Source: an uncultured Candidatus Rokubacteria bacterium | Lineage (GTDB): Bacteria; Methylomirabilota; Methylomirabilia; Rokubacteriales; DASRDR01 | DNA length: 64,000 nt | NCBI GenBank assembly: GCA_963708025.1 | Contig: CAVPSB010000013.1 | Coordinates: 416,001-480,000 of the forward strand | Reading direction: 5' to 3' | Shown here: positions 23,212 to 58,410 of the stretch, piece after piece | How positions within the stretch are numbered: the stretch's first letter is position 1 | How the letters are laid out: each line of letters starts with the position of its first letter | Notes under the pieces: generated by a model | What the model was told of the DNA's origin: nothing | The model's input: only the letters and a program-made list of their open reading frames with translations | Database searches by the model: none | Translations under genes and position numbers: made by a program

Positions 23212-23289
23212 CGCAGCGGCCATCCATCTAACCCTGATCGGCAATTCCACCACGCTCCCGAGGATCGCCGCAGTCGCTCCTGTTCCGCT

Positions 23290-23383
23290 CCCTCTCCCTT
23301 CCAGGGAGAGGGTTGGGGTGAGGGTGTCCAGGGGCGCGTGGTTTCCCCCTCACCCTGACCCTCTCCCCCAGTGGGGGAGAGGG
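23290..23383. repeat. pair of inverted CCCTCTCCC-N-GGGAGAGGG REP-like palindromes
   Basis: ccctctcccttccagggagagggttggggtgaggg...ccctcaccctgaccctctcccccagtgggggagaggg. Confidence 0.8.
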
Positions 23384-23475
23384 AAAATGGGAGCAGCCCG
23401 CTCCGCGTATTCGGCGATCAGGGCTAAGAGTCTGAAGCCGGTCTGGCGTGCCGCGCCCGAGCAGCATCGCGGGCC

Positions 23476-42851: not shown

Positions 42852-43598
42852 ATGACGACACCGAGCTCCTCCGCCGCCCGATCGGAGCTGGCCCCCACCG
42901 GGAAGCTCCGCACCGGGATCAACTTCGGGAACTTCCTCCTCGTGAACAAGAACCCGGCCACCGGGGAATACGGCGGCGTCGCGGTGGACCTGGGGCGGGA
43001 GCTCGGCCGGCGGCTGGGCGTTCCGATCGAGATCGTCCCCTTCGAGACCGCGGGCAAGCTGAACGACGCGCTGAAGGTCGGCGCCTGGGACGTCGCGTTC
43101 CTGGCGAACGAGCCCGCGCGCGCCAGCGAGATCGCCTTCAGCGCGGCCTACCTGGAGATCGAGGCGGGCTACCTGGTCCCGGCCGGCTCCCCGATCCGTA
43201 CGATCGCGGAGGTGGACCGTGAGGGCGTCCGCATCGCCGTGGCCGAGAAGAGCGCCTACGAGCTGTACCTGAGCCGCAGCATCCAGCACGCCCGGATCGT
43301 CCGCGTGCAGGGCATGGACGGCTCGTACGAGCTCTTCGTGAAGGAGAAGCTCGAGGCGCTGGCCGGGCTCAAGCCCCGCCTCGTGATGGACGCCGAGAAG
43401 CTGCCGGGATCGCGGGTGCTCGATGGGCGGTTCACGGCGGTCCAGCAATCGATCGGCACCCCCCAGGGGCGCGCCGCCGGCGCCCGGTTCCTCCGCGAGT
43501 TCGTCGAGGAGATGAAGGCGTCCGGCTTCGTCGCCCGGGCCATCGAACGGCACGCCGTTCGCGGCGTGTCCGTCGCGGCCCCGGCACCAGCTCAGTAG
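42852..43598 (+). CDS. family 3 solute-binding-like protein
   Basis: ELAPTGKLRTGINFGN, GAWDVAFLA, EVDREGVRIAV. Confidence 0.85.
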   Translation: MTTPSSSAARSELAPTGKLRTGINFGNFLLVNKNPATGEYGGVAVDLGRELGRRLGVPIEIVPFETAGKLNDALKVGAWDVAFLANEPARASEIAFSAAYLEIEAGYLVPAGSPIRTIAEVDREGVRIAVAEKSAYELYLSRSIQHARIVRVQGMDGSYELFVKEKLEALAGLKPRLVMDAEKLPGSRVLDGRFTAVQQSIGTPQGRAAGARFLREFVEEMKASGFVARAIERHAVRGVSVAAPAPAQ

Positions 43599-43659
43599 CT
43601 ACCGAGCCGCCGGGAGTGGGGCCGACTACGCTAAGGCTTTTCCAGTGGGACCTCCAGTC

Positions 43660-44060
43660 GCAGGGTGCCGGGCTGCTCGGACGCCCGGCGACCTGGGCCC
43701 GGCCTTCGCCGCCATCACGAACGAGCGCCCCGGCGGGCTTGTGGTAGTCGGCGATCCTCTGACCTTCATTCTGCGATCCCGCATCGTGGAGTTTGCTGCT
43801 GCGAACCGTCTCCCGGCCGTATACGGGACCCGAGAGTTCGCGCAGGTGGGCGGCCTCTTGTCCTGCGGCACCCATCTGTCGGATCTCTTTCAACGCGCTG
43901 GCGGCTACGTCGCGCGACTCCTCAGGGGCGCCAAGCCCGCCGACCTTCCCGTGGAACAGCCCACGAAGTTCGAGCTGGTCGTCAACATGAAGACCGCGAA
44001 GGCGCTCGGCCTCACCATCCCGCAGTCGGTGCTGGTGCGGCGGATGAGATCATTCAGTAG
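43660..44060 (+). pseudogene. C-terminal remnant of an ABC_sub_bind substrate-binding protein
   Basis: LRGAKPADLPVEQPTKFELVVNMKTAKALGLTIPQSVLV(RADEIIQ*); N-terminus missing. Confidence 0.85.
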
Positions 44061-44289
44061 AAATCAGCGCGAGGTCCCTGGAAGAGAGCGATTCAAGGAC
44101 TTACCGCGGCAACGCGGAGGAAGCGCAACGAACACACAGCCGAAAAAGCGCGATATGGCCCTGCGTGGACGAGTGCCGTGGGGCCGTGTCTCTGCGGGCT
44201 AAACTATGCGGCAAGTTGACGTTGCGCCAGAGGGACGTGATATCCTACCGCCCCCGCCGGAAGCCGCGACGAGTCGGGAGGAGTTGACG

Positions 44290-44898
44290 ATGGCCTTCAT
44301 ATACACCATTCCCGTCGACCAGGCCGAGGGTGAGGTCCGGGCGATGTACCAGAAGACGCAGGCGGTCGTCGGCTACGTCCCCAACTACGCCAAGGTCTTC
44401 AGCCACCGGCCGCAAGTGATGGCCGCCTGGTCGGGCCTCCTGGCAAGCATCCGCGCCAATCTGGACGCCCGCCGGTACGAGCTGGTCACGCTGGCCGCTG
44501 CGCGCGCCTTGCGTAGCTCGTACTGTATGCTGGCCCACGGCAGCATCCTGCGAAAGCAGTTCTACTCTGCCGCGGAGCTGACCGCGATCGCCGGGAGCGC
44601 CGCCGGCGGTGAGCTTGCGCCGGCCGACGTCGCGACGATGACCTTCGCGGAAAAGGTGGCCCGCGACGCCAGCGCAATCACCGAGGGCGACGTGCGGGCC
44701 CTCCGCGAACACGGTCTCTCGGACACCGAGATCTTCGATGTCGCCGCCGCCGCCGCGGCGCGCTGCTTCTTCAGCAAGCTGCTGGATGCGCTCGGGGTGG
44801 AGCCCGACGCGGCGTACGAGAGCCTTGAGGATGAACTGAAGCGCCGGCTCACCCCGGGCCGGCCGATCAGTCGGCACGCCCCCGAACAGCTCTTATAG
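44290..44898 (+). CDS. AhpD/carboxymuconolactone decarboxylase-like peroxidase-related protein
   Basis: GYVPNYAKVFSHRP, RRYELVTLAAA...SSYCMLAHG, LREHGLSDTEIFDV. Confidence 0.88.
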   Translation: MAFIYTIPVDQAEGEVRAMYQKTQAVVGYVPNYAKVFSHRPQVMAAWSGLLASIRANLDARRYELVTLAAARALRSSYCMLAHGSILRKQFYSAAELTAIAGSAAGGELAPADVATMTFAEKVARDASAITEGDVRALREHGLSDTEIFDVAAAAAARCFFSKLLDALGVEPDAAYESLEDELKRRLTPGRPISRHAPEQLL

Positions 44899-45175
44899 TC
44901 GAACGGTCCGTGCCAGACCACGCCGGGTGCCAGCAAACCGTGCGGTTGGTAACGGGTAGACCCATGGCTTCGCCGCCTGAAGCAACAAGCGCCTCCCAAC
45001 CAGATCATCGCCTTGTAGCGGAATGCCAGATCCTCACCTTCCGGATTAGGATCGTGCCGTGATGGCTTGCCGATCTGCGTTGGCAGCATCGCCATATGAG
45101 TCATCCAACAGGCGGCCTCTGGATCAGACCGGTCTAGGACAATCTAGAGACATTGGTAGAGAAACGAGGTGATGT

Positions 45176-45505
45176 ATGGCCACATCGTGGCACTCTGAGC
45201 GCTTGGAGCTGTCGGCCGATGTGCAAAGGATCCTGAAGACGATCGACACCGTTGTTCGAACAACCGTGTCGATTCAATCGCAGCGGCCATCGCCGCCTGA
45301 ACTACGAAACTACCTTGCGAGTTCGGTGCACGTGGCATCAACCCTTGGCAGCCTAGCTGTGGGCGGTGTTCAATGTCCATTCGCACAACCTCCGGCGAAC
45401 ATTCAAACGGGATTCGATTCGACCGGAAACCTTCGTCTGGAGTGCTTACACCCAATGCCGAATCAGCATTGTTGGGATCTTTCCGGCAGCCGGACCAGCT
45501 GCTGA
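45176..45505 (+). CDS. hypothetical Cys/His-containing small protein
   Basis: GAGGTG SD; low GC; stop 1 bp before the next ATG. Confidence 0.55.
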   Translation: MATSWHSERLELSADVQRILKTIDTVVRTTVSIQSQRPSPPELRNYLASSVHVASTLGSLAVGGVQCPFAQPPANIQTGFDSTGNLRLECLHPMPNQHCWDLSGSRTSC

Positions 45506-45506
45506 G

Positions 45507-46085
45507 ATGTACGAGCTTGTATCCGGGGCCGGCGGAATCGCTCTCTACTTTCTCAGTGTGTCGTGGGGCACTACGGGGGTGGGGATCTCGATTATTGTGA
45601 TGGCACTGGGAGGAATGGTCTTTACGCTTGTCGGGTGGACCATCGTGACCACGCTTCACCTTCGTGTACTGTCGTGTCTCCTGATCAGCGGCTGGGCCGT
45701 CTTTCTGCTCGCCATCGGGATGCTGGTTGCCTGGGGAGTGCTCGTCGCAACGATCCAAGTGAGCGCAGCCTTCGGCGCGCAGCCGACGCCAACTCAAAGC
45801 GTTCTCGCCAGCGCGATCACCTCGCTTCTCGCTATCGTCGGGGCGTTCCGGTTGAAGATCGCAGACCGCTGGGGCGTTTCGGTCATCCGGCGACGGATCA
45901 TCCAAGATGCGTTCCGCAAACGTATCGGAAGCCGTCCCCTGGGGGTGCCTACGAACGATCCCCGCGTTCTCGCATACGAAGCGGTCGAGAACGAGAACTT
46001 TTCTATCCCAGGAGATACTGTCGAGGGGTGGGGCTTCGAGGCCTCGTGCAAGCGGCTCCGGTTGATTGGAGCGGTGCTTGGCTGA
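45507..46085 (+). CDS. hypothetical membrane protein (about 4 TM helices)
   Basis: Hydrophobic segments followed by a soluble C-terminus. Confidence 0.6.
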   Translation: MYELVSGAGGIALYFLSVSWGTTGVGISIIVMALGGMVFTLVGWTIVTTLHLRVLSCLLISGWAVFLLAIGMLVAWGVLVATIQVSAAFGAQPTPTQSVLASAITSLLAIVGAFRLKIADRWGVSVIRRRIIQDAFRKRIGSRPLGVPTNDPRVLAYEAVENENFSIPGDTVEGWGFEASCKRLRLIGAVLG

Positions 46086-46270
46086 GGGCGAGTGAACCCC
46101 GATCGGCGATTAGGTTTCCCCTGATGCGCGGCAGCATGGCGGAGAGTACCATCACAAATGTACCGTTCCGTCGTACCTACGATGCGCTCTGCTGTCTAGC
46201 CGGCTAGGCGACTTGGTCAATCCCGGGTCCGTCCGCCGTCACTTCCACTCGAGCAGATGGAGGCCTTGCG

Positions 46271-46753
46271 ATGCTGAGGAAACAGGTCACTCCGAAGCCA
46301 CCCGTCGAGTCCGCATCCTTCGAGGACGAGATACCAGTTGCGAACGTCGCCACAGTGCACGTTAGTTCGGAACAGGGTGATCATCCCATCGACAATGTGT
46401 TCGATAACAGCCGAGGACCCGGAGGCAGTCGCTGGATTGCCGACGGACCTGGCGAGCAGACGGTGACTTTGGTGTTCGACAGCCCGCAGACCATCCGAAG
46501 AATCGGCGTGGAGGTTGAGGAGGTCGCGGTCAACCGAACGCAAGAGCTATCCGTGTTTGTCTCCTCCGATGGAGGGCGGACCTATCGACAGCTCGTGCGA
46601 CAGGAGTTCAACTTCAGCCCTCCCGGCACGAGTTTCGAGCGTGAGGTCTGGTCGGTCGCGGCGGACGCGGTAACCCATCTACGGCTGGAGATCAAGCCGG
46701 ACAAGGGAGGTCGAATCGGCCGGGCGACTCTTACCGCCCTCGCGCTGGCGTAA
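46271..46753 (+). CDS. discoidin/galactose-binding-like (F5/8 type C, APC10-like) domain protein
   Basis: SSEQGDHPIDNVFD, RQEFNFSPPGTSFERE, LRLEIKPDKGG. Confidence 0.75.
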   Translation: MLRKQVTPKPPVESASFEDEIPVANVATVHVSSEQGDHPIDNVFDNSRGPGGSRWIADGPGEQTVTLVFDSPQTIRRIGVEVEEVAVNRTQELSVFVSSDGGRTYRQLVRQEFNFSPPGTSFEREVWSVAADAVTHLRLEIKPDKGGRIGRATLTALALA

Positions 46754-46893
46754 AGCGTGCTCGGCGAGCTGCTGACAACGCGCGAATTGGGTAGTTCTCG
46801 GGTCGGTAGACGTACCGGAGATACCTGGAACCCGAACGACGATAGAGAGTGGTGATGAGAGGTACCTAGAACCAAGTGATCCCAGGGGATCCC

Positions 46894-47127
46894 ATGGCAC
46901 GACAGGTGACCCGACGCCAGATGGAGACGTGGCTGCTAGGCAACGGGTTCCGCCGTCTCAAGGGCGGAATGAGCGGCCACGTGCAGTACGAGAGGCAAGG
47001 TGTCAAGATAACCTTGCCTGGGCACGGGCCGCAGGATCTGACAAAGAAGCATGTCGCGCTCATTCTTCGTTCGCTTGATGAGGCAGGATTCGACCGTGAG
47101 CAGGTGCGCCGCGAGCTCGGTGGATGA
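46894..47127 (+). CDS. HicA-like toxin with no adjacent HicB
   Basis: LLGNGFRRLKGGMSGHVQYE...ITLPGHGPQDL...VALIL matches the HicA GSH/VPxH layout. Confidence 0.7.
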   Translation: MARQVTRRQMETWLLGNGFRRLKGGMSGHVQYERQGVKITLPGHGPQDLTKKHVALILRSLDEAGFDREQVRRELGG

Positions 47128-47391
47128 GAGATGCCCCTAGAAGCCGGCAATCCAGGAATACGTGATGGCCGATATATCAAGAGCCGCCCTTTAACGGAAG
47201 CGGCTCCGACTTCGACTGAGAGCAATACCTAGATCGGACCGATCGACCTGCGAAGTGTGTCGCGATGCGTTCCACTAGCGTTGCCGACGAGTTTCCCGAG
47301 CTTCACTCTTATGCGGCTGACGGCGGAGCGGTAGCAGAAGGCGGGTGAGCCCAGTGTGGCCCGACCCGCGGCCGTAGACGACCGCAGCCTT

Positions 47392-48012
47392 CTAGCTGGA
47401 GCTCCAGTTGAACGGCGCGAAATGGCCGTTGTTCTTGCCCGATGTGTCGTCCCAGTCGATGCCGAAGGCGTGCAGGTGGCTACGGGAGGCCTTCGCCAAC
47501 GCGAGCCGGCTCGCGGCCGGGTGGGCGACGTTGTCAAGGTAGATCGGCTCGTTCTGGTTGGCGCCCGCAATGCCCTCGACGGCGATGTCGAGCACGCCCC
47601 GGATGGACACCGACCGACGCATCCCGCTCCTCTCGATGGTGATTGGCTTTGCCTCGGTGCCCCCGAAGCGACCGATCAGTGGACCAAGCGCGGCCATCGG
47701 ACCACCGCCCTGGCCGCTCGCGATGGCCGTGAGCGCCTCGCGCTGCTCGGTCGAGGCCTGCTCGTCCACAACGACGCCGACGTTCCAGTTGCCCTGGATC
47801 ATCGGGCCCGGCGTGTGCAGTAGCACGGCAAAGCTCAAGCCGTCGAGCCGGGTGCCTCCATACTGACCGCGCTCGACGTGGAACACGAGGCCCGCGTCGC
47901 AGGAGCCCTTGGTCGGCCGTGCGGCCAGCCCCGAGGTCGGACAAGGGCACACGGAGTCACAGCTGCAGGCTTCGAAGTACTCGCCGCTGATCCGCCACTG
48001 AAGGTTCGCCAT
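47392..48012 (-). CDS. DUF1326 domain protein
   Basis: GEYFEACSCDSVCPC, PTKGSC, EQREALTAIASG, GKNNGHFAPF. Confidence 0.9.
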   Translation of the reverse strand: MANLQWRISGEYFEACSCDSVCPCPTSGLAARPTKGSCDAGLVFHVERGQYGGTRLDGLSFAVLLHTPGPMIQGNWNVGVVVDEQASTEQREALTAIASGQGGGPMAALGPLIGRFGGTEAKPITIERSGMRRSVSIRGVLDIAVEGIAGANQNEPIYLDNVAHPAASRLALAKASRSHLHAFGIDWDDTSGKNNGHFAPFNWSSS

Positions 48013-48042
48013 GGTGATCCTCCCTGGATTGCCTGGTGTCCG

Positions 48043-48876
48043 TCACATCGAGTGGCCGCCGGCCCGCAGCGCCATAGCGAGGTCTGGCCGGACGGCAACG
48101 GCCACGCCGAGCAGCACCAGCGCGATGCCGGTCACTCGCGCGATACATTCTCCATACGGCAGGAGCTTCTCGGCCGCGACGACCGCCGCGATGAGCAGCA
48201 CCCATGGAAGGCCCATCGCGCCGGCGGCGACCAGCACGGCCATGAGTGCCCAGCAGCAACCGAGACAGTAGACCGCGTGTGCCCAGCCCATTGCCAACCC
48301 GCCACGCCAACCCGGGCGCCAATGGCCGAGAAGGAACCCGATCGGGCTGCGACAGTGTCGCAGACACACCTGCTTGAGCGGCGAGACCTGGAAAAGCCCA
48401 GCGACGAGGAGCACCCCGGCGATGCCGTAGGGCAGCGCATCGGAGGTGATGGCGCCAAGCGCCACGCTCCCGAAGTAGATCGGGACACCTGTTGACGCCC
48501 AAAGCGCAAGATACATGAGCGCGAACAACGCCACGGGCACGGCCTTCCCGACCAGGCCCGCCGAGTTTCGCTGGGTCGCGGCGTAGAGCCCGATCATCGG
48601 CGAGGCACTCGGCAGCATCATTGCGGCCATCATGGCAGCCCAGGCTCCCACGTACAGAAGCCCGTCCAAGACCGTCGGGGTCATCGCCATGTGCATGTCA
48701 CGCATGTCATCGGTTCTCATTGCCGACGACAAGACTGGGACCCACGCCGTCACCGTGATGACGAGCAGGACGGCGTACGTCAGGACGGACATGGGATCGC
48801 GGGCGGTGACGACGGCCGGACTCGGCGTTGACTCGGGAGAAGAGTCAGCGACCACGGCCGGCATTCTATTCCGCAT
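48043..48876 (-). CDS. DUF2182 metal-binding membrane protein
   Basis: MMAAMMLPS, PLKQVCLRHCRSP, YCLGCCWALM; usual partner of DUF1326. Confidence 0.9.
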   Translation of the reverse strand: MRNRMPAVVADSSPESTPSPAVVTARDPMSVLTYAVLLVITVTAWVPVLSSAMRTDDMRDMHMAMTPTVLDGLLYVGAWAAMMAAMMLPSASPMIGLYAATQRNSAGLVGKAVPVALFALMYLALWASTGVPIYFGSVALGAITSDALPYGIAGVLLVAGLFQVSPLKQVCLRHCRSPIGFLLGHWRPGWRGGLAMGWAHAVYCLGCCWALMAVLVAAGAMGLPWVLLIAAVVAAEKLLPYGECIARVTGIALVLLGVAVAVRPDLAMALRAGGHSM

Positions 48877-49178
48877 CTTGCAAGGTGTCCAGCGCCCCGG
48901 TTCAGGTCCTCATCGGCACTGGGGCATAGCGCGCGGCGCGCGCTTCATCACATGCTCATTCGGGTATTCGTCGAAGGCACATTTGCTCTCGTCCCAAGGG
49001 TGTAGATGATCTCGTGCGTCCCGGCGTGACCAGCCTAGAGCTTATTGTTTTCTGGCAGCTCCAGTCCTTAGAACAGTAAGTTCTAGGACGTCTCGTTAGG
49101 TTCTTGTGTCACGCTCTTCGCGATCGCAGGGAAAATCATCCGCGTTCATTAGATGCGCAATGTCCCCGTACCCTAAGC

Positions 49179-49553
49179 TCAGATCCAGCGCGCCGCGGCC
49201 GCGCCGGTGTCCTCCGGGCGGCTGTTGAAGGCGATGGCCGCGCCCGGAGCGGCGCGGTGGATGGCGTTGACTAAGGCCTCGAACAGGACCAGCCGGCTCG
49301 GCGGCAAGCGGACACCCGCTCCGACCACCACGCAGTCGTAGTGGCCCTCGGCCAGGCGGCGCTCCACGGCGAGTGCGGCGGTCGCGTCGGGATTGATAAA
49401 GCAGTTCTCGGCCTGCCAGCCGCGCTCGGCCATGTCGGCGAGCGCGACTTCTACCCCGGCGTGAATCTTCTCCGCAGTCATGCCCCGCGGCAGCGCCGGA
49501 TCCGAAAAATCCACCGTCGCCGGATCCAAGCCGACCAACAGAACTCGCTTCAT
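49179..49553 (-). CDS. conserved hypothetical protein
   Basis: YDCVVVGAGVR...FEALVNAIHRAAPGAAIAFNSRPEDTGAAAARW. Confidence 0.75.
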   Translation of the reverse strand: MKRVLLVGLDPATVDFSDPALPRGMTAEKIHAGVEVALADMAERGWQAENCFINPDATAALAVERRLAEGHYDCVVVGAGVRLPPSRLVLFEALVNAIHRAAPGAAIAFNSRPEDTGAAAARWI

Positions 49554-49733
49554 CTCACGCTCCCCCCGCCCAGCTGCGTCCGCCACCATTCCCTACTCTA
49601 GCTGGATCATGTCCCTAGATCACCGTGTTCCAAGGACGCCTGGGTACCTGTGGCGACCTGAGATCACGCATGCCCGTCAGGAGTCGCCAAGGAACAGACC
49701 CTCGTTGGCTCGAGCGTTTCCTCGCCGTCCCAC

Positions 49734-50092
49734 TCAGCCGGCGGGACGGCGACTGATCCGGACCCGGCCCGGCTGGAGGACCACGAATTGGCCCACGAGT
49801 CCCTCACCGCGCTCCTCGACCAGCTTCAGGACGGCTCCGGGAAGATCGGCGCGGGCCCTCGCCGGGAAGCGAAGCAGGAAGACGCCGCCCGCCGCGGCCT
49901 CGTTGGCATGGAGCAGCTGACCGAAGTCCTTGTCCTCAGTCACCAAGATTCTGCCCTCGCGAATCGCGAGCTCCAGCACGACCCGTCCGTGGCGCGTGCC
50001 GAGATCTCCGCGATCGCTACCACGTCGTGACCGGCAACACGGAGGGCCCGGACGACGGCGAAGTCACAGCTCTCATCCGCCAGGAATCGCAC
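49734..50092 (-). CDS. DUF5615 PIN-like toxin (frameshift near 49985)
   Basis: MRFLADESCD...GHDVVAI, EGRILVTEDKDFG. Confidence 0.85.
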
Positions 50093-50101
50093 CGGTACCG
50101 G

Positions 50102-50365
50102 TCAACGCTTGGGGTGCTTGCGGCCGCGCCCTCTAGCGGGCTCCATGACCACCGTCTCCTCGTGCGCCACCGTATCCGCCGCATAGCCGATGGCCGCCTG
50201 GATGTCCGCGCGCGTGAGGCGCGGGTAGGCGTCCAGTAGATCAGCCTCCGTGGCCCCTTCGCTCAGCTTGCGCAGGACGAGCTCGACGGTGATCCGGGTC
50301 CCGCGAATGACGGGCTTTCCCAGCATGACCTTGGGATTCATCTCAATCCGATCGGTGATTGTCAT
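50102..50365 (-). CDS. DUF433 antitoxin-like protein
   Basis: NPKVMLGKPVIRGTRITVELVL...YPRLTRADIQAAIGYAA. Confidence 0.92.
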   Translation of the reverse strand: MTITDRIEMNPKVMLGKPVIRGTRITVELVLRKLSEGATEADLLDAYPRLTRADIQAAIGYAADTVAHEETVVMEPARGRGRKHPKR

Positions 50366-50927
50366 CCTCACCTCCGCGGCCAGCTTCTCTGTCAGGAGAC
50401 CCGCGAGCCGCACCCTCGCCGATGATTCTAAAGGATGAGTGGAGATGGGAAAAGGGGGATGCCGGCGGGGTGCGCTCCAATCAACTCGTCCAAAACGAGC
50501 GAGCTTTTCACTGAGTGGGGAGGTCCCGCCCGAACCCGTTGCGCCCGGGCTCTCGACTGAGGGCCGCTCAGGGCGCGCCCACTCCACAAAAGGGGGAGCA
50601 TCATTCCCATGGTCAAGGGCAGCGGATCGTCTTCCCCCATCTCCCCCCGGTCAGCAGGCATCGCGCCCGTCTTGGCCAAGGAGATACTGGCTTGTCTGAA
50701 GGTCATGGTCACGCCCTCCGTAGGGTGAGCAGGGTTGTTGTCGGCAGACCGAGAGCGCTCGCCGTGCTATGGCGGAGGCGGAGACCGGCTACTCGGGGGT
50801 ACCTCGGCGAACACAGTCCTCCCGACCGCGAGACGGAAGGCCGCCCGAGTTAGCGGCATTTGACATGGCCTCGTACGGCCTCTCGGTTGACACGCCCTGA
50901 GGTCGGGCGTAGGTTGCTCCCAACATC

Positions 50928-51137
50928 ATGGCGACCGGACGGCGAGGAGAGGCGAAGCCGTTCACCACCATCGCCGTCATCGTTCTTTCTTTGATAGCGC
51001 TCCTGCAACTGCTCCGCTTCGTCTTGAGGTGGGAGGTGACGCTCAACGGCGCGATAGTTCCCGTGTGGCTCAGCGGCGTCGCGTTTGTGGTCGCAGGCGC
51101 GCTGGCCGTGATGGTCTGGCGGGAAACCCGCCGGTGA
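50928..51137 (+). CDS. small 2-TM membrane protein
   Basis: KPFTTIAVIVLSLIALLQLLR...VPVWLS. Confidence 0.7.
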   Translation: MATGRRGEAKPFTTIAVIVLSLIALLQLLRFVLRWEVTLNGAIVPVWLSGVAFVVAGALAVMVWRETRR

Positions 51138-51758
51138 ACCGGCGGCCATGGCACGCGCTCGCCGACTCGTCCCGCTGCTTGCCGCGTGTACGCGCTTGCC
51201 GTACGGCCCCATATGCTTCGGTGGGGCGCTTCGGACGAGGAGGTGCGGCAGCCGTATTCAGGAGCCAACCTGATTCCCGGCGGCCAGCGGGGCGCGACGA
51301 CGGCCGTGACGATCGACGCCTCGCCGTCGCGTGTCTGGCCGTGGCTCGTGCAGGTGAGCTGCGATCGGGCTGGCTGGTACAGTTGGGACCGTCTCGACAA
51401 CGGTGGCGTCCCGAGCGCCGAGCGGATCCACCCGGAGTGGCAGCACTTCGCGGTCAAGGATCGCCTAGCGTCAACGCCGAGCGGGAGCGCCTGGTTCGAG
51501 GTCGCCGTGCTCGACCCGGATCATTTTCCTAAGTGCGTGCGGCGATCAACCTGCGCGGCGGGCGCCCTTTCGACACCGCGAGGCCGCGACCGGGGTTCTC
51601 CTTGGATGCTCCCTGCGGCTTTCAGCTCAAGGAATTACCCGGTGAGCGTATGCGGCTCGGGGTCAGCAGCTACGCTTCCGCTCGGCCGCGGCTCCTGCAG
51701 GGGAAGCCCATTGGGTCATGCAGACGCGCCACTTCGCGAACCTGAAGCGGCGCGCTGA
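51134..51758 (+). pseudogene. degraded SRPBCC-family protein
   Basis: RWGASDEE, TTAVTIDASPSRVWPWLVQ, RAGWYSWDRLDN; frameshifts and deletions. Confidence 0.75.
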
Positions 51759-51906
51759 AAGCCAGCGCGTGCGATCCCTCGAGTCAGCGCAGGATTGGAC
51801 TCGGAGCAGCAAGTGTCTCAAGAGTCCTTGGACGCGGGCGATCCACGGACCGCCTGTGAAGAGTACCTCTCGGTGCAGGAACAAACGGCGAAGACAGGAG
51901 GGTCTA

Positions 51907-52776
51907 ATGACTAGCTTCGCAATCGGTGCGGCGACGGTCACGCGGATCGAGGAGACCTACGAGCCCAACTTCGACGCGGCGAAGTTCTTCCCCGACTGGC
52001 GACCGGAGACGGTTCAGCAGCATAAGGACTGGATGTTGCCGCATCACTACGATGCTGCAAGTGGATTCTTAAAGCTTAGCGTACACAGCTGGCTGGTCCG
52101 GGTTGGTGGGCGCACGATTCTCATCGATACCTGCGTCGGGAACGGTAAGGCGCGACCGACCATGCCGAAGTGGCATCAGATGCAGACCGGCTACCTCGAC
52201 CGTCTGGCGGAGGCGGGAGTGCGCCCGGACCAAATCGATATGGTGATGTGTACGCACCTGCATTCGGACCACGTCGGCTGGAACACCAGGCTCGACAATG
52301 GTCGCTGGATGCCGACGTTCCCGAACGCGCGGTACGTGTTCAGCAAACTGGACTATGAATTCTACCGGACCCCTGCGCCAGAGAAGGGGCCCGCGTCACT
52401 CGCCGCCTTCCACGACAGTGTGCGGCCGGTCGTTGAGGCCGGCCTCGCACACATGGTCTCCGGTACCCATCAGGTGGACGAGCATATCTCCCTGGACCCG
52501 GCTCCCGGCCACACACCGGGCACCGTAGCCATTACGCTCGTCTCCCGCGGCGAGCGCGCTCTTTTCTCCGGCGACATTCTCCACCATGCCATTCAGGTTC
52601 ATGAGCCGACGTGGAACAGCGTCGGGTGCGTCGACGGGGTCAGTGCCCGGACGGGCCGACGCAAGGTGCTGGAGGAGTGCGTCGGTACTGGCGCCGTGCT
52701 GATGCCAGCGCATTTCGGTATCCCATTCGCCTGTCACGTTGACGCTAAGGGCGATAGGTTCGTCCCACGCTTCTAG
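51907..52776 (+). CDS. MBL-fold metallo-hydrolase
   Basis: CTHLHSDHVGWN, PGHTPG, FSGDILH, PAHF. Confidence 0.92.
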   Translation: MTSFAIGAATVTRIEETYEPNFDAAKFFPDWRPETVQQHKDWMLPHHYDAASGFLKLSVHSWLVRVGGRTILIDTCVGNGKARPTMPKWHQMQTGYLDRLAEAGVRPDQIDMVMCTHLHSDHVGWNTRLDNGRWMPTFPNARYVFSKLDYEFYRTPAPEKGPASLAAFHDSVRPVVEAGLAHMVSGTHQVDEHISLDPAPGHTPGTVAITLVSRGERALFSGDILHHAIQVHEPTWNSVGCVDGVSARTGRRKVLEECVGTGAVLMPAHFGIPFACHVDAKGDRFVPRF

Positions 52777-53174
52777 GAAGGCCCTGGGGGCGCTACCACT
52801 AGGATCACGCGGCGAGGCAAGTGACGACGGCTGGCAATGAGGGCCGGCCGGCGGCCTATGAAGGACCGTGATGACGCTGAATGGCTCGGCCAGACTCCCT
52901 GAATGAGAGCGATCTAGGGAGTCGGAGCCCACTGGCAGGACTTCGGTTGCAGCCGGGGTCAGTGAGAACGGCCGCCAGAGCGGTAAGATGCGTAAAGTCG
53001 GCCCAGGGCGGTGCTTGACCCTATAGGAGTCGTCGGGTAGGGTAGTCGCACCTCCCGGGTCCTGGGAGTTCAAGATGTCCTGGCAGGGTCTGCGGTGTTG
53101 TTCCGTGACGCCCTCGCGGTCAGACGACCGACGAGGGCGTTCGTGTCTCACGCTTGACGGTCAAGGAGGCAGCC

Positions 53175-53978
53175 ATGGTGTTGCGCGGCAAGCACGCACT
53201 TGTGACGGGCGGCTCTCGCGGGATCGGACGAGGCATCGTGCTCAAGCTAGCCGAGGAAGGGGCTCGCGTCGGCATCCACTACTACCGAAACGAGGCCGCG
53301 GCCAAGGAGACGCTGGAGCGTGTCCGGAAGCACGGCACCGACGGATTCCTCGTACAGGGGGATGTGTCGCGACCCGAGGACGTTCGTCGGATGTTCGCGG
53401 AGGTGAAGAGTCGGTTCGGAACGCTGGACATCTTCGTAGCGAACGCGCGCCCTGAACTGGCGATGTTCTATCAGAAGCCGATGGAGATCACGCTGGAGGC
53501 CTGGGATCACGCCCTGGACTCGCAGGCGAAGGCGTTCTTGGTTGGCGCCCGCGAAGCCGTCGCGCTAATGGGGGAAGGCGGGCGGATGGTGGCCATTACG
53601 TACGCGCCGGGCGGGCGCACCGGCACGTGGCAGCCCTGGGTGGCGATGGGCTCGGCGAAAGCGGCGCTCGAGTCGCTCGTCCGCTACTTCGCGGTGACAC
53701 TCGCCACGCGCGGTATAACGGTCAACAGTGTCAGTCCGGGGTTGACCGATGACAGCGTGCTGAATGGATTGCCTGATCCGGTGGTCCAAACGGCGCGGAC
53801 CTGGCACGCGAGCGGCTGGACCCCGATGGCCCGGATGGGGACCCCGGCGGACATCGGCAATGTCGTGGCACTTCTGTGCTCGCCGGACGCGAACTGGATC
53901 ACGGGTCAACTCATCACAGCGGACGGTGGCGCGTCGCTCGTGGACACCCATCTGCCCCTTGAAATTCAGCGAGGCTAA
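53175..53978 (+). CDS. SDR oxidoreductase (FabL-like)
   Basis: TGGSRGIG, GSAKAALESLVRYFA, ITGQLITADGG; W/M replaces the usual catalytic Tyr. Confidence 0.88.
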   Translation: MVLRGKHALVTGGSRGIGRGIVLKLAEEGARVGIHYYRNEAAAKETLERVRKHGTDGFLVQGDVSRPEDVRRMFAEVKSRFGTLDIFVANARPELAMFYQKPMEITLEAWDHALDSQAKAFLVGAREAVALMGEGGRMVAITYAPGGRTGTWQPWVAMGSAKAALESLVRYFAVTLATRGITVNSVSPGLTDDSVLNGLPDPVVQTARTWHASGWTPMARMGTPADIGNVVALLCSPDANWITGQLITADGGASLVDTHLPLEIQRG

Positions 53979-54364
53979 CGTATCGACGCTTTCCTAAGGC
54001 GGGGCCGTACGGCTGTACTCGGTCGTGGCCAGGAGCGGTAGCGACGACGCACGTTGATGCCGCTCTCCGCCCGCTTCACGATCGACACAGCAGCCGGTGC
54101 TGCTTCCGGCGAATGTGGGTCATTCAAAATGGGTTGGTCCCCGGATCAGACCGATCCAGGGTCACTCTCGGCGACTGATGGCGGTAGAAGATCGAACGGT
54201 GTCCTCGGGATGGTACGGAAGATCGTATTGTCGGCTCGAAAGCGACCACCGGATGCGTCGGCGGCGGCTCTGCCCACTTACTCGTAACGCTCCACCCGGA
54301 ACTGGAACACCCTAGAACTTACTGATCTAAGGACTGCCGCCTTCCGGGAACAGTAAGTTTCAGG

Positions 54365-54673
54365 GAGCCCAATAGGTTGACGGCGATGGCGAGCATTCCG
54401 ATCACCAGCGGCCACCGGTACCCGTAGCGGTCCCCAAGCGGCCCGACGACGAGGCCCAGGCCGGCGCTCAGCAGGACCATCAGCGTCACAACCTGCCCGA
54501 GGAGGGGGACCGTCGTGTGCAGGTCGCGCGCCATCGGCGGGTAGAAGGGGGTCGTGGCGAAGAAGTTGAGCGCTGCCAGGAAGGCGGCGACGCACAGCGC
54601 CGCGAGGAGGCGCCCGCCCACATGCCCGTCCGCGGCCGACGTCTTGCCCTTACTGACTGCGTTGCTCACCACC
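54365..54673 (-). pseudogene. N-terminal MFS transporter fragment
   Basis: LCVAAFLAALN, GPLGDRYGYR (motif A); homology stops at the repeat site 54344-54364. Confidence 0.75.
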
Positions 54674-54953
54674 GAACCGGCTCCCGCATTCACGTGAGAC
54701 CTTTCAGCGGACCCGGCCAAGCACCACCGATCTCTGGACTCTAACCTGGATCGATCTGATCCAGGGCCTATCGGCGGCTGCCCCAACCCGCAGTTCGCCA
54801 GGCGGTCCGTCGCGAGGCGCTGGAGGCCTCGATGAAGAAATGGCCGCGAACGGTTCCGGGATCACGAGGGCCTCACCGGCGGATGCCCCCAGACGAAGAC
54901 GTGAAGCCCCCGCGCCCGGGGCCACCCCGCTTCCAGTGGGACACCGCGAGTCG

Positions 54954-56939
54954 TCATGCTGCTACGATGAGGCTTGACAGCACGTACTGAGACACCGGCT
55001 TCACGAGGTGCGCGTCAAAACCGGCCTCTTTCGAACGCTGGCGGTCAGCCGCCTGGCCGTACCCAGTCACAGCGATGAGACTCGGTGTCTTGCCAGCCAG
55101 TGTCGAGCGCAACGTGCGGGCAACGTCATAGCCATCGAGACCGGGCAGGCCCAGATCGATCAAGACGACATCGGGTCGTTCGGCGAGTGCCAGGGCCACG
55201 CCCCGTGTCCCATCGCTCGCCTCGGCGACCCGATGCCCGAGAGACTCGAGCAGAAGACGCAGCGATTCGCGCGCGTCATCGTTATCCTCGATGATCAGCA
55301 CTCGCCGCGGCTGCTCGGGGATGGCCGCCGGCGAGGGCGGAGCAGGCGTCTGCACGAGCTCGAGTGGGAGTCGAATCGTGAACTGAGCCCCGCGCCCTCT
55401 GCCCTCACTCAGCGCGAGAATGGTGCCACCGTGCATTTCGATCAAGCGCCGCCCCAGGCTCAGCCCGATCCCCAGGCCTCCCGGTGACCGGCCCATCGGC
55501 CTCTCACCCTGCGCGAACAAGTCGAAAACGCGCGCGAGCAGTTCAGGTGCAATGCCGACCCCGCTGTCGGTGACCCGAAGGACCGCGTCGTGCCCATCCC
55601 GCAGGACATCGACATCGATCGACCCTCCCGGGGGAGTGTACTTGACGGCATTCTCCAAAAGGTTCGTGATGATTTGTTCGAGGCGGGTCGGGTCGGCGTT
55701 GACGACAACGGACTCGGCTCGGAAGGTGATGCGGTGCTCTCGGCCTTTGCCAGCCTCCCGCAGTGAGCGCACACAATGCCCAGCCACGTCGCTCAGGTTG
55801 AGCGGCTCACGCTGCAGAATGATCTTGCCCGCGGTCAGCCCCGCGACATCCAGGAGATCCTCAAGAAGCCGCGTGAGATGCTGGGTCTGACGATGAATGA
55901 TCTGCCGCAGACGAACGGCAGGCTCCTCCGGAGGGCCCCGTTGCCCGAGCACGTTCACGGCATTGCTGATGGCGGCGAGGGGGTTGCGCAGCTCGTGTGA
56001 GAGCGTCGCGAGAAACTCATCCTTCGCCCGGTTGGCCTCGGCCGCCTCCCGATACAGTTGCGCGTTCTCGAGAAAGATACCGGCCAGATCACTGATCCCC
56101 TGGAGCAGTCGGAGCTCGTCCTCACTGAACGAGCGACGCTTCGTCCACCAGATGACGAAGAAGCCGCCGACGGGTCGATCCTTGATACAGATCGGCACGA
56201 AGACATCGGATTGGTGTGGAAAGCGGCGGAAGCTCTCGGCGTCCACGCGAGAATCGCCGGACATATCGTCGGTCCACACAGCGCGTCGATGGAGCCAGGC
56301 CTCTTCGATGGCCGGATGATTCTTGATCGGGATCGGAAACCGCCGGAACGCGTTGACCAGATTCTTGGGGACCCGATAGCCAGCCACCGGTTGAAGCTCC
56401 TCGTGAGCGGGATCGGCAAGAAAGGCGCCTGCCATATCAGCGGCCAGCGCCCGAGCTATCTCACGCGCCACTCGTCGCATCGTTTCTGTGGGATCCAGCG
56501 TCGAGCTCAGCGTCCGGCTGATCGCCAGCAGCGTCGCGGTCTCCTGCAGTCTGAGCTGTTCGCGCCTGAGGAGGTCCGCTCGCTCCACCTCCGCATGCTT
56601 GCGGTCGGTGATGTCGCGCAGGATGGCAAGGTGGCGCCCGGCGAGGAAGTGGGCTCGCGCGCTGTACTCGACGTCGCGTAGCGCCCCATCAGCACGGACC
56701 ACGCGTAGCTCGCCGGTTTGCTGGCCGGTGGTGAGAAAGTCCCGCCAGGCGCCGTCGAGGTCCTGTGCAGGCGGCTCGAGTAGCTCGTCAAAGCGCCGAC
56801 CGAGGAGTTCGTCCGGCGGCAGGCCGAGCAGGCGGCAGGCGGCTGGGTTTGCATCGATGAAGGTGCGAGCATCATCGATGACCAGCACCGCGTCAAGTGC
56901 CGCCTTGAACAGCGCCTCGAACTCTGATCTGCTCGACAT
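54954..56939 (-). CDS. hybrid sensor kinase PAS-GAF-HisKA-HATPase-REC
   Basis: DEFLATLSHELRNPL, NLLENAVKYT, GLGIGL, VLIIEDN, DLGLPGLDG. Confidence 0.95.
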   Translation of the reverse strand: MSSRSEFEALFKAALDAVLVIDDARTFIDANPAACRLLGLPPDELLGRRFDELLEPPAQDLDGAWRDFLTTGQQTGELRVVRADGALRDVEYSARAHFLAGRHLAILRDITDRKHAEVERADLLRREQLRLQETATLLAISRTLSSTLDPTETMRRVAREIARALAADMAGAFLADPAHEELQPVAGYRVPKNLVNAFRRFPIPIKNHPAIEEAWLHRRAVWTDDMSGDSRVDAESFRRFPHQSDVFVPICIKDRPVGGFFVIWWTKRRSFSEDELRLLQGISDLAGIFLENAQLYREAAEANRAKDEFLATLSHELRNPLAAISNAVNVLGQRGPPEEPAVRLRQIIHRQTQHLTRLLEDLLDVAGLTAGKIILQREPLNLSDVAGHCVRSLREAGKGREHRITFRAESVVVNADPTRLEQIITNLLENAVKYTPPGGSIDVDVLRDGHDAVLRVTDSGVGIAPELLARVFDLFAQGERPMGRSPGGLGIGLSLGRRLIEMHGGTILALSEGRGRGAQFTIRLPLELVQTPAPPSPAAIPEQPRRVLIIEDNDDARESLRLLLESLGHRVAEASDGTRGVALALAERPDVVLIDLGLPGLDGYDVARTLRSTLAGKTPSLIAVTGYGQAADRQRSKEAGFDAHLVKPVSQYVLSSLIVAA

Positions 56940-57499
56940 CAGGAGAGAGAGATGTCAAGCGTGAAGGTAAGGAACCACATGTCGAGACCGCCTCGATAAG
57001 GCTAGTCCCGTCCGCAGCACCCGCTAGACGCACCCGCCTGTTCTGGATGCGCGATGATCTCATCTGTCCGCATCGGCATGCTCTCCAGGAATGGGGCCCG
57101 AGCGCTCGCGGTCTCCAGCGTCGGATGCGATCAGGGCGCGATGGCGGTGGCCGGCATGATCGATCCATGGCGCATCGACGATGCTACTCCGCCAATGACG
57201 TCGACACCGCGGACAATGCGCAGTAGGCCCGAGTTTATGCGGAGGGTGCGAGGATGTCAATTGAGAGGCGCGTGTAGGGGCCTCCCCCGATGTATCCGAT
57301 CGTAGACACCGCGGGACCCGACTTGCTCGGTCGGCCGCGGAGCCCAGTGCGCCCCTTTAGGGCGTTCAGAACCGGCCTCGCGATCCCGCTATTCGACCCG
57401 CCGTTCCGTCCACGGGTAGCAGCGCGCGCCACGCACGCTGCAACTCGTGCAAGCGGCCCCTTCCCGAGTTGATGTTCGCCTTCGCCCGTTCGGAGATGA

Positions 57500-58384
57500 T
57501 CATGGTTGAGCCATCAACGCTTGCAGCGCCGCGCGCCGAGGCGCGCCCGACCCCTTGATCTGCGTGCGATGCATCACGCGCCGCGCCTTCGGGTCGAATG
57601 CGTCCCGGCGATGCATCGTGGTGCGGTTGTCCCAGAGCACGAGATCGCCCAGCGCCCACTTGTGCCGGTAGATCGCGGCATCGGCGTACGACCAGATCTC
57701 GTCCAGGAGGCGCTCCGACTCCTCGAGCTCTAGGCCCATGATGTAGGCATTGCGTCGGCGACCGAGATATAGCGCGTTGTCGCCCGACATCGGGTGCTCG
57801 ATGACAATCGGGTGCGGCGTGCCTTCCGATACACGCGGATCTTCGGAAGCCGCCAGACCCTTGCGAAGATAGCCGCCGGAGTCGTACGTGCCGTCGTGCT
57901 TGATATCGAGCTGCTTGATCCGGCCGACCAACCGCTGCGGCATTCTCGCGAGCGCGGCCTTCATGCTGCAAAACCAAGTGTCGCCGCCCTCGGTCGGGAT
58001 TTCGAGCGAATACAGCATCGACGCATCCGGCGGTTGCGACACGTAGCTCATGTCCGTGTGCCAAGTCGCTTCGCCGTCGCCGAGGGCGCCGATCGGCTCG
58101 CCCTTCTCGTCGAGCACGTTGGACACGACGTAGATATCCGGATAGCCCGGAGGTGACTTGCGTCCGGCGCCCTGATTCGGGGGCGGGTCGAGCGTGCCGA
58201 AATGCTTGGAGAACGACAACAGATCGTCGTCGGTCAGTTTCTGGTTCCGGAAGATCAGGACGTCGTGGCGGTACCAGGCGTTCTTGATTGCTTCGATCTG
58301 CGCGTCGGTGACCGTCGCGAGGTTGACGCCTCTGACTTCGGCGCCGACGGTTCCAGTGGGAACGATTTCGAGTGCATCCGACAT
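57500..58384 (-). CDS. TauD/TfdA family 2-oxoglutarate dioxygenase
   Basis: WHTDMSY, GGDTWF, WDNRTTMHRR, RVMHRT. Confidence 0.93.
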   Translation of the reverse strand: MSDALEIVPTGTVGAEVRGVNLATVTDAQIEAIKNAWYRHDVLIFRNQKLTDDDLLSFSKHFGTLDPPPNQGAGRKSPPGYPDIYVVSNVLDEKGEPIGALGDGEATWHTDMSYVSQPPDASMLYSLEIPTEGGDTWFCSMKAALARMPQRLVGRIKQLDIKHDGTYDSGGYLRKGLAASEDPRVSEGTPHPIVIEHPMSGDNALYLGRRRNAYIMGLELEESERLLDEIWSYADAAIYRHKWALGDLVLWDNRTTMHRRDAFDPKARRVMHRTQIKGSGAPRRAALQALMAQP

Positions 58385-58410
58385 GTTGTCCTCCTTGGTC
58401 GGCGATTACT

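Follow-up and report, generated by a model that had tools for sequence, protein, structure and literature searches.

Directional 25-bp quasi-palindromes mark module boundaries in low-GC variable islands of Candidatus Rokubacteria

We describe a family of short directional quasi-palindromes in a stretch of 64,000 nucleotides from an uncultured Candidatus Rokubacteria bacterium, here called the window (positions 416001-480000 of contig C13 of genome G000, the genome under study). Thirteen such sites lie in a 10.7-kb island of the window, and further genera and families of the order have the same sites. The best explanation of these data is that this 25-bp family delimits small, mostly single-gene modules in variable islands of low G+C content. 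The sites cluster, keep discrete classes of their central nucleotides across the order, and coincide with the ends of blocks that, judged by comparing genomes, have been exchanged horizontally between species. We found no published description of them in the literature on integrons, gene cassettes and attC sites of Rokubacteria and Methylomirabilota, with subscription journals and supplements outside the scope of that search.

A first-pass annotation had proposed thirteen directional 21-bp sites here, with recurring spacer classes, lying between genes or at a gene break and at 3′ as well as 5′ gene ends. Every one of these 21-mers exists at its place and on its strand, and the rest of that description also holds. 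The sites are listed below, each with the class defined by its 5-bp centre; "bracket" refers to a pairing of classes described later.

44077..44097, + strand: site of class AGAGC, 5′ bracket of the carboxymuconolactone decarboxylase (CMD) module, 17 bp past the stop of the ABC_sub_bind 3′ fragment; moderate in leave-one-out scoring
45118..45138, + strand: site of class AGACC, 3′ bracket of the CMD module, from its coordinates, class and leave-one-out score
46865..46885, - strand: site of class ACTTG, immediately 5′ of a HicA-like gene and kept there in four of five genomes
47136..47156, - strand: site of class GCCGG (near the GCCCG class of relatives), 9 bp past the stop of the HicA-like gene; weak by the matrix alone
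47228..47248, - strand: doubtful site with a poor left arm, weak in leave-one-out scoring
49034..49054, - strand: degenerate site that makes up a 54-bp inverted pair together with 49067 and is its outer half; the pair folds (z score -3.7)
49067..49087, + strand: site of class AGTAA, at whose right arm homology to genome G013 begins
49614..49634, - strand: site of class ACGGT, inside which the homology to G013 ends and homology to genome G022 begins
52898..52918, + strand: site of class AGAGC, 5′ bracket of the short-chain dehydrogenase (SDR) module, from its coordinates, bracket comparison and leave-one-out score
54140..54160, + strand: site of class AGACC, 3′ bracket of the SDR module, on the same three grounds
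54311..54331, - strand: site of class AGTAA, half of a second 54-bp inverted pair; the pair folds (z score -3.05)
54344..54364, + strand: site of class AGTAA; 3 bp past it (54367), the truncated MFS gene becomes homologous to relatives
54745..54765, no strand assigned: site with perfectly palindromic arms and centre AGATC, about 40 bp past 54703, where the MFS homology has its upstream (5′) end

The full site is about 25 bp long, TYCCTRGAWC-A-NNNN-GWTCYAGGRA, and consists of two inverted 10-bp arms around a 5-bp centre. Conservation over this length was seen when 66 non-identical sites from G000 and its relatives were pooled, and the site is directional because position 9 is A in 61 of the 66. 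Each of the thirteen sites is either intergenic or placed at a truncated gene (the MFS N-terminal fragment or the ABC_sub_bind 3′ fragment), and together they partition the island into modules. Their orientations along the island run + + - - - - + - + + - + -. As a weak hint that the sites function as single strands, arm changes compatible with wobble pairing outnumber mismatching changes across them, a count that depends on the orientation given by our weight matrix and carries little weight.

The half-pattern GAWCNNNNNGWTCYAGG has eight matches at seven places in the window, all within 46865-54765, against 0.06 expected by chance (100 shuffles; maximum 1). When up to two mismatches are allowed, the 21-mer pattern has 34 strand matches, compared with an expectation of 4.39. 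Across the genome of 8.17 Mb, the strict palindromic pattern CYWRGAWCNNNNNGWTCYWRG occurs at five places, four of them in the island, and the CTAGG-arm pattern GAWCNNNNNGWTCTAGG at five places, all of them in the island. A weight matrix trained on the very sites it then scored reaches 19 or more at 23 places genome-wide, 12 of which are in the island. When each site was instead scored by leave-one-out, nine of the thirteen were strong, each matched by at most nine positions outside the island, and 44077 was moderate, with 35 outside positions scoring as well.

No site had been noticed outside the island by the first-pass annotation. This is right for the window, where only three further matches score 11 or more (14931, 21805 and 34452), and wrong for the genome, which has good sites at C19:83133/83166, C19:312874 and C13:506973. 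The pair at C19:83133/83166 is a 91% copy of the 49034/49067 pair and its adjoining upstream region. The clustering in islands for which the first-pass annotation had suggested a matrix scan is present in G000 and in the arrays of its relatives, with other good sites elsewhere in the genome.

In other genera and families of the order the sites often form arrays in low-GC stretches and are also found singly. Arrays hold eight sites in G011 (locus L012; seven of them in 5.7 kb), seven in G018 (L013) and six within 5.6 kb in G013 (L055), and smaller sets are present in G045, G096, G126, G058, G020 and G022. The centre classes extend across these genomes: among 67 sites, 13 are AGACC, 12 AGTAA, nine ACTTG, eight AGAGC, seven ACCGT/ACGGT and four ACTTA. 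Order-wide, a loose palindrome, with a noisy background, is found in 83 of 151 genomes and the CTAGG-arm pattern in 47 of 151. These tallies, and that for IntI given below, take in G038, G055 and G083, which are flagged as unpublished; no specific claim rests on those three.

A scan of the whole collection with an AGACC-class 17-mer returned at least 119 loci, mostly chance half-matches. Ten of the matches listed score 25 or more as full sites: four are labelled Rokubacteria or Rokuibacteriota, two belong to one metagenome-assembled genome (MAG), and the remaining four come from other taxa and may be due to chance. Among the matches listed, the named records with complete AGACC-class sites are mostly Candidatus Rokubacteria or Rokuibacteriota, and we do not claim that the class is exclusive to them. 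A perfect AGACC-class 21-mer lies near a contig end at position 1997 of L148, a MAG labelled Tissierellaceae with 33% G+C; about one full match of this kind is expected by chance among the 119 matches listed.

Homology between genomes tends to end at the sites, and this is the evidence from which we conclude that site-bounded modules have been exchanged between species. The segment 49069-49630 (562 bp), made up of a 136-aa gene and the DNA flanking it, matches G013, which belongs to a different genus, at 97% identity; other matches between G000 and G013 are 77-83% identical. Its left boundary is the right arm of site 49067, where the identity sets in; the left arm and the centre of that site are not the same in the two genomes (AGTAA versus ACTTA). 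On the right, identity stops past the left arm and centre of site 49614, and inside that same site the homology of a third genome (G022) to the next module begins. A second case involves G011 and G018, which have in common a single two-module block of 827 bp that is 99.6% identical, the other alignable parts of the two 20-kb loci being 66-70% identical. This block begins 3 bp ahead of one ACTTG site and stops inside another. At three of the four boundaries of these two near-identical transferred blocks, the same centre class is kept, and at the fourth it is not.

Among the blocks with at least 85% identity (HicA-like, 136-aa, MFS and C19), six of eight ends lie inside a site or within 3 bp of one; the exceptions are 54703, which is 42 bp from the thirteenth site, and 48970. 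Homology of the truncated MFS gene to its intact relatives starts 3 bp past site 54344. The HicA-like gene has an ACTTG site directly 5′ in four of five genomes, with unrelated DNA past that site, and a site directly after its stop in three of five. At two solitary sites in relatives, synteny analysis maps the two flanks to different contigs, with a breakpoint precision coarser than hundreds of bp. The first-pass annotation had asked whether breakpoints fall inside the sites; the homology ends in or near them bear on this, and joints in public sequencing runs are taken up below.

A further regularity concerns two centre classes. Where an AGAGC site is followed by an AGACC site in the same orientation, 0.5-2.2 kb apart, one co-oriented gene lies between them in seven of seven cases. 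The seven bracketed cargo families are all different: CMD, SDR, methyltransferase, alpha/beta hydrolase, GYD, DUF169 and TPR. In the 21 pairwise comparisons of brackets the shared stretches are the sites themselves; eight pairs gave no alignment at the threshold used. There are two kinds of exception: an 84-bp flank and a relocated 30-bp stretch common to the second bracket of the window and L069, and upstream ABC_sub_bind gene ends that L013 has in common with L061 and L069.

The best fit to the inverted arms with their short asymmetric centre, to the discrete centre classes and to the bracket rule is a trans-acting, site-specific recombinase that pairs like centres. We put at a little short of an even chance the idea that the sites are crossover sites of a recombinase encoded elsewhere and work like dif modules. 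In this model a site-specific enzyme acting in trans would cut at the 25-bp sites, and the arm-core-arm geometry of 21-25 bp suggests that it would be of the tyrosine type. The centre would set compatibility. Sites with an identical centre would recombine, and therefore a module flanked by two different classes, such as AGAGC and AGACC, could give way to another that has the same pair. Modules could be gained or lost at direct repeats of one class.

The logic of the model has a counterpart in the dif modules of Acinetobacter plasmids, where exchange takes place between pdif sites whose spacers are identical or nearly so, as outlined in PMC13141974; the centre-class logic of our sites matches this spacer logic, which we count in favour of a recombinase. 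As sketched in PMC13141974 and PMC6449649, dif modules likewise have short sites placed singly between small accessory modules that carry toxin-antitoxin genes and enzymes. In the outline of PMC13141974, moreover, the array does not carry the recombinase gene, replacement of modules takes place between replicons, and spacer class appears to set pairing, so that a module with two spacers can be swapped for one with the same pair. There are also differences from the pdif sites outlined there. These XerC/XerD sites are 28 bp long (11-6-11) and resemble chromosomal dif, whereas the sites here are 21-25 bp (10-5-10) and unlike the clade's candidate dif sites; pdif sites take alternating orientations, whereas the island sites do not do so regularly and the AGAGC/AGACC pairs are direct; and the present arrays are chromosomal and belong to another phylum.

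A wider proposal, which we offer as possible though on balance rather doubtful, is that Rokubacteria have a second, integron-independent cassette system. In it, a recombinase acting in trans would work on a small set of heterospecific 25-bp sites with their 5-bp centres as compatibility codes, and single-gene modules between two different classes would be swapped from genome to genome as in laboratory recombinase-mediated cassette exchange. The first-pass annotation had inferred a cassette system apart from integrons and dif. This is partly supported: comparison of genomes shows the boundary role and the exchange between species, while recombinase action and cassette capture are putative. If an enzyme does act on the sites, an uncultured and widespread soil phylum would have a new natural system of cassette exchange alongside the classical integrons of the same genomes, and bacteria would have a third example, past integrons and dif modules, of modular small accessory genes. 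The compact site set (25 bp, several orthogonal centre classes) would then be of possible use in genome engineering. Even if the sites are passive, they are useful as markers of variable islands and of recent gene transfer in Rokubacteria MAGs.

Several observations weigh against a recombinase acting at the sites. First, no recombinase gene is consistently near them in the 21 site-bearing loci scanned with Pfam (the island and 20 others, within 5 kb or the 20-kb locus; 31 + 68 + 128 open reading frames (ORFs)), although this does agree with the first-pass expectation that the enzyme is encoded away from its sites. Only scattered insertion sequence (IS) genes are near the sites (IS110-family twice, rve, Mutator), and one integrase fragment adjoins an apparent tRNA gene, judged by eye only. 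Y2_Tnp (IS91-type) has three weak partial matches in G000, none of them near the island. As candidate recombinases, G000 has 23 tyrosine-recombinase matches, five resolvase matches and seven IS110-type matches. Second, known tyrosine recombinases would lead one to expect a longer centre than 5 bp, or 7 bp if the C and G on either side are counted. Third, one boundary of the 97% module is AGTAA in one genome and ACTTA in the other, so strict centre identity is not always kept, and adjoining sites often differ in centre. Fourth, the sites enclose gene fragments, and no site-like sequence was seen at the MFS break point in intact relatives.

Further points of the same kind come from metagenomes and from scoring. 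The 80 metagenome loci with a HicA-like gene (432 kb) contain six sites in all; a site lies within 90 bp upstream of the gene in 3 of 73 and within 80 bp downstream in 1 of 77. Because 76 of the 80 loci have no site near the gene, the HicA-like gene is not inherently a cassette; in soil metagenomes it is common and mostly lacks sites. Four public runs, assembled as short contigs, gave no clear circle, deletion or inversion joint at a site, the best of them holding at most 30% of the sampled words of the window. Nine of the ten joints listed from these runs are away from sites; the tenth, in a single contig of run X2 that joins 47132 to 50236 on opposite strands, falls 4 bp ahead of site 47136. 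These listed joints weigh neither for nor against recombination at the sites. Finally, three of the thirteen sites are weak in leave-one-out scoring: 47136, 47228 and 49034, with 1625, 156 and 212 outside positions scoring as well. Site 47136 is rescued by a matching centre class past the same gene in relatives, and 49034 by its 54-bp pairing with 49067 and by the paralogous copy on contig C19; 47228 has no such rescue and remains doubtful.

The pattern of homology ends could also be produced by transposition. The sites might be the abutted ends of non-autonomous transposable cassettes with terminal inverted repeats of 8-10 bp, each site being a right end, 5 bp and the next left end, as at IS circle junctions or in tandem dimers, and the cassettes would be mobilised by a DDE/DEDD transposase encoded elsewhere. 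In the 97% module, homology sets in at an arm and stops past an arm and centre, so the module itself carries inverted 8-bp ends, as this explanation would have it. Where one centre recurs in direct order, as ACTTG does three times in G011, the run could be read as target duplications used again, and the 54-bp doublets could pass for empty elements. In addition, IS110-family, IS30-like, rve and Mutator genes adjoin several arrays. No transposase with matching ends was found, one IS110 element having been mapped, and the constant 5-bp gap would need end-targeted insertion every time. The constant order of AGAGC then AGACC around seven cargos misfits random target duplications, and complete solitary sites occur without any element. 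We consider abutted ends improbable, though still a rival to be reckoned with.

The only IS110 element mapped, a multi-copy element of G000, is not inserted in a site, and its ends and targets are unrelated to the sites. In G018, an IS110-family transposase gene (L013 6919-8413) has its end 40 bp away from a site of class ACTTA with a degenerate outer arm, and it may have been inserted next to or into that site. A short element at 23267-23390 of the window (C13:439267-439390) has the same ends as the IS110-family IS at C13:384226-385513 and C15:72468-73754; it lacks a transposase gene, and its appearance is that of a miniature derivative.

The intergenic mosaic elements of Neisseria, with their dRS3 repeats, are another point of comparison, since they too have arrayed inverted-repeat sites of about 20 bp with a variable centre (as outlined in PMC1797815). 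According to the same outline, dRS3 sites were proposed to bind a site-specific recombinase that promotes exchange of neighbouring genes, with an IS110/Piv-type enzyme as candidate; IS110-family genes adjoin two arrays of the present sites. The dRS3 sites (6-8-6) described there flank non-coding units of 50-150 bp and number hundreds per genome, whereas the present sites flank genes and number about 20.

The position of the sites relative to genes bears on two explanations in which they are not sites of a recombinase. Of 67 sites, 22 lie between convergent genes, 30 in tandem gaps, six in divergent gaps, eight inside mostly spurious ORFs and one at a locus edge; the gene calls behind this count are rough. 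The bias to gene 3′ ends is what one would expect of passive palindromes, that is, REP-like hairpins or protein-binding sequences (mRNA stabilisers, pause or termination signals, nucleoid-protein sites) that travel with accessory genes and offer 21-25 bp of microhomology, through which foreign DNA would be joined by ordinary or illegitimate recombination. Their RNA hairpins are on average stabler than those of shuffles (-7.5 versus -3.4 kcal/mol). One strand folds somewhat better as RNA than the other (40 versus 25 sites among 67, p 0.003), a weak bias because the strand was chosen by the matrix. The inverted doublets resemble REPINs, and the scanned loci yielded no recombinase.

Other data fit passive palindromes poorly. 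Arms and centre are kept in discrete classes across families with unrelated flanks. As DNA, most single sites fold no better than shuffles; the two 54-bp doublets fold better. None of the thirteen sites was called as a terminator, and none is directly followed by a run of T. Copies number no more than about 20 per genome and are concentrated in islands, and G000 lacks a Y1/RAYT gene. Exchange driven by RecA is marginal at 25 bp of identity, and yet several precise exchanges are seen. We think a passive role unlikely, though it deserves serious attention.

Some known elements of this type do not account for the sites. Terminator-like structures in the region are at chance level (7 versus 6.1), so the sites are not a set of intrinsic terminators. 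Rfam 15 gives one sub-threshold match on 43000-59000 (E 0.089), outside the sites. Repetitive extragenic palindromes (REPs) and REPINs are also extragenic imperfect palindromes of few sequence classes, with a bias to 3′ ends and convergent gaps and occasional inverted doublets. The RAYT family that accompanies REPs (PF01797) has no match in G000; within the order, 35 of 151 genomes have it, and none of 20 fetched loci with a Y1 gene has a site within 1.5 kb. The low, island-confined copy number also differs, with 23 places scoring 19 or more in 8.17 Mb, 12 of them in one island, as against tens to hundreds spread over a chromosome.

In the second such explanation, the sites would be operators, and the transcription factor binding them would control accessory stress genes as a regulon. 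A palindrome with arms of 8-10 bp is typical of dimeric regulators, and some sites lie 10-60 bp 5′ of gene starts (HicA-like, 136-aa, MFS fragment). The placement otherwise argues against fixed promoter positions: divergent gaps hold only six of 58 classifiable sites and convergent ones 22, the distances to gene ends range from 9 to more than 300 bp, and the neighbouring genes are unrelated. The centres are conserved by class, the sites coincide with breaks in homology, and no regulator gene recurs beside the arrays. Operators are a very improbable explanation.

This genome has an integron, and one may ask whether the sites are simple sites of integron type, a degenerate attC/attI-like cluster (CALIN) served by the integron integrase of G000. 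This enzyme is encoded on contig C24 (TIGR02249; two adjacent pieces, 235.9 + 200.4 bits), and IntI is common in the order, with 53 of 151 genomes over the curated cut-off. The cargo, toxin-antitoxin genes and small enzymes, is typical of cassettes, and in their folding both 54-bp doublets resemble minimal attC hairpins. An AAC-N5-GTT geometry, that of an attC half-site, is seen in half of the sites. In common with integron cassettes and CALINs, the modules are mostly of a single gene, with imperfect palindromes at gene 3′ ends and cargo of similar types.

There are also differences. Integron cassettes are co-oriented, each with an attC site of about 57-140 bp (R''-L''...L'-R') and a GTTRRRY core at its 3′ end. 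The integrase is on another contig and frameshifted, and TIGR02249 matches only C24:97846-98792 and a fragment on C26, with none near the island. Arrays downstream of intI in relatives carry canonical attC of 70-100 bp, and the true attC of G000 and its relatives are of the GCCTAAC...GTTAGG type, three to four times longer than our sites and different in sequence. An nhmmer profile built from nine attC sites of relatives gave no match within C13:460-471 kb, which holds the island, while it matched C24 (E 3.6e-5, 0.0016, 0.012 and 0.8) and other contigs (best on C14, E 7.8e-6). Conversely, the matrix found no convincing site in 32 intI-flanking loci of relatives: 22 upstream or short loci have no match of 15 or more, and ten downstream loci have two isolated ones, of classes unseen elsewhere. 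G011, G013 and G018 have site arrays and no IntI. Most sites are single palindromes of 21-25 bp belonging to few classes common to unrelated cargos, the cargo lies in both orientations, and sites are found at 5′ and 3′ gene ends. The claim that the sites are not canonical attC is upheld, and we give service by the integron integrase very little chance.

The canonical integron of G000 spans C24:88600-98873. Its intI reads across two frames, owing to either a frameshift or an error of assembly, and stops about 13 nt short of the contig end; on its 3′ side, attC-profile matches lie at about 88.6, 93.4, 95.1 and 95.9 kb. A second N-terminal intI fragment is located at C26:74294-74506.

A likeness to dif was likewise not found, in agreement with the first-pass annotation. 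Candidate dif sites of G000, G013, G108 and G112, single-copy sequences that have the usual XerD-type arm, end in TTATGTNAANT, unlike the island sites. The candidate of G000 is at C23:161946-161973, at a contig end.

The genome as a whole comprises 49 contigs with about 71% G+C and is 99.67% complete. G+C falls to 58-67% over about 44-58 kb of the window. No tRNA gene was found in the window, so the island is not a tRNA-linked integrative element. Genes of the island that Pfam names are the ABC_sub_bind C-terminal fragment, the CMD-family gene, an F5/8-type-C protein, the HicA-like gene, DUF1326 with PpoB2, a DUF5615 fragment with its DUF433 partner, an MBL-fold protein, the SDR and the MFS N-terminal fragment. 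To the right of the island are a hybrid histidine kinase and a TauD-family dioxygenase. The features other than sites are as follows.

43645..44202, + strand: ORF at the island's left edge, over the ABC_sub_bind C-terminal fragment, which covers profile positions 203-288 of 293; the DNA is homologous to relatives at about 43779-44060
44206..44898, + strand: cargo, CMD-family gene (Pfam)
46876..47127, + strand: cargo, small HicA-like gene (Pfam and comparison with relatives)
47392..48876, - strand: cargo, DUF1326 and PpoB2 pair, copper chaperone family (Pfam)
49179..49589, - strand: cargo, 136-aa gene with no Pfam match, in the module 97% identical to G013
53154..53978, + strand: cargo, SDR gene (Pfam)
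54319..54786, - strand: truncated MFS transporter gene with sites on both sides, covering the first 75 of 347 profile positions

The ABC_sub_bind fragment shifts frame at 44020-44060, shortly ahead of its expected C-terminal end. Many soil contigs part from the window at 44028-44040, which reflects a large family of paralogues. A 91% paralogue of the 136-aa cargo gene lies at C18:580833-581221 of G000 without surrounding sites; it could be the chromosomal source of the module or merely a second copy.

Contigs from two of the public runs, X2 and X3, differ from the window in two places. They have one additional T after position 49983, so the DUF5615 (PIN-like) gene of the DUF433/DUF5615 pair is probably frameshifted in the assembly. 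They also contain a variant without DUF1326-PpoB2, in which 47381 is joined to 48895 with 38 other letters between; the junctions of this variant, which skips 47382-48894, are gene ends and not sites.

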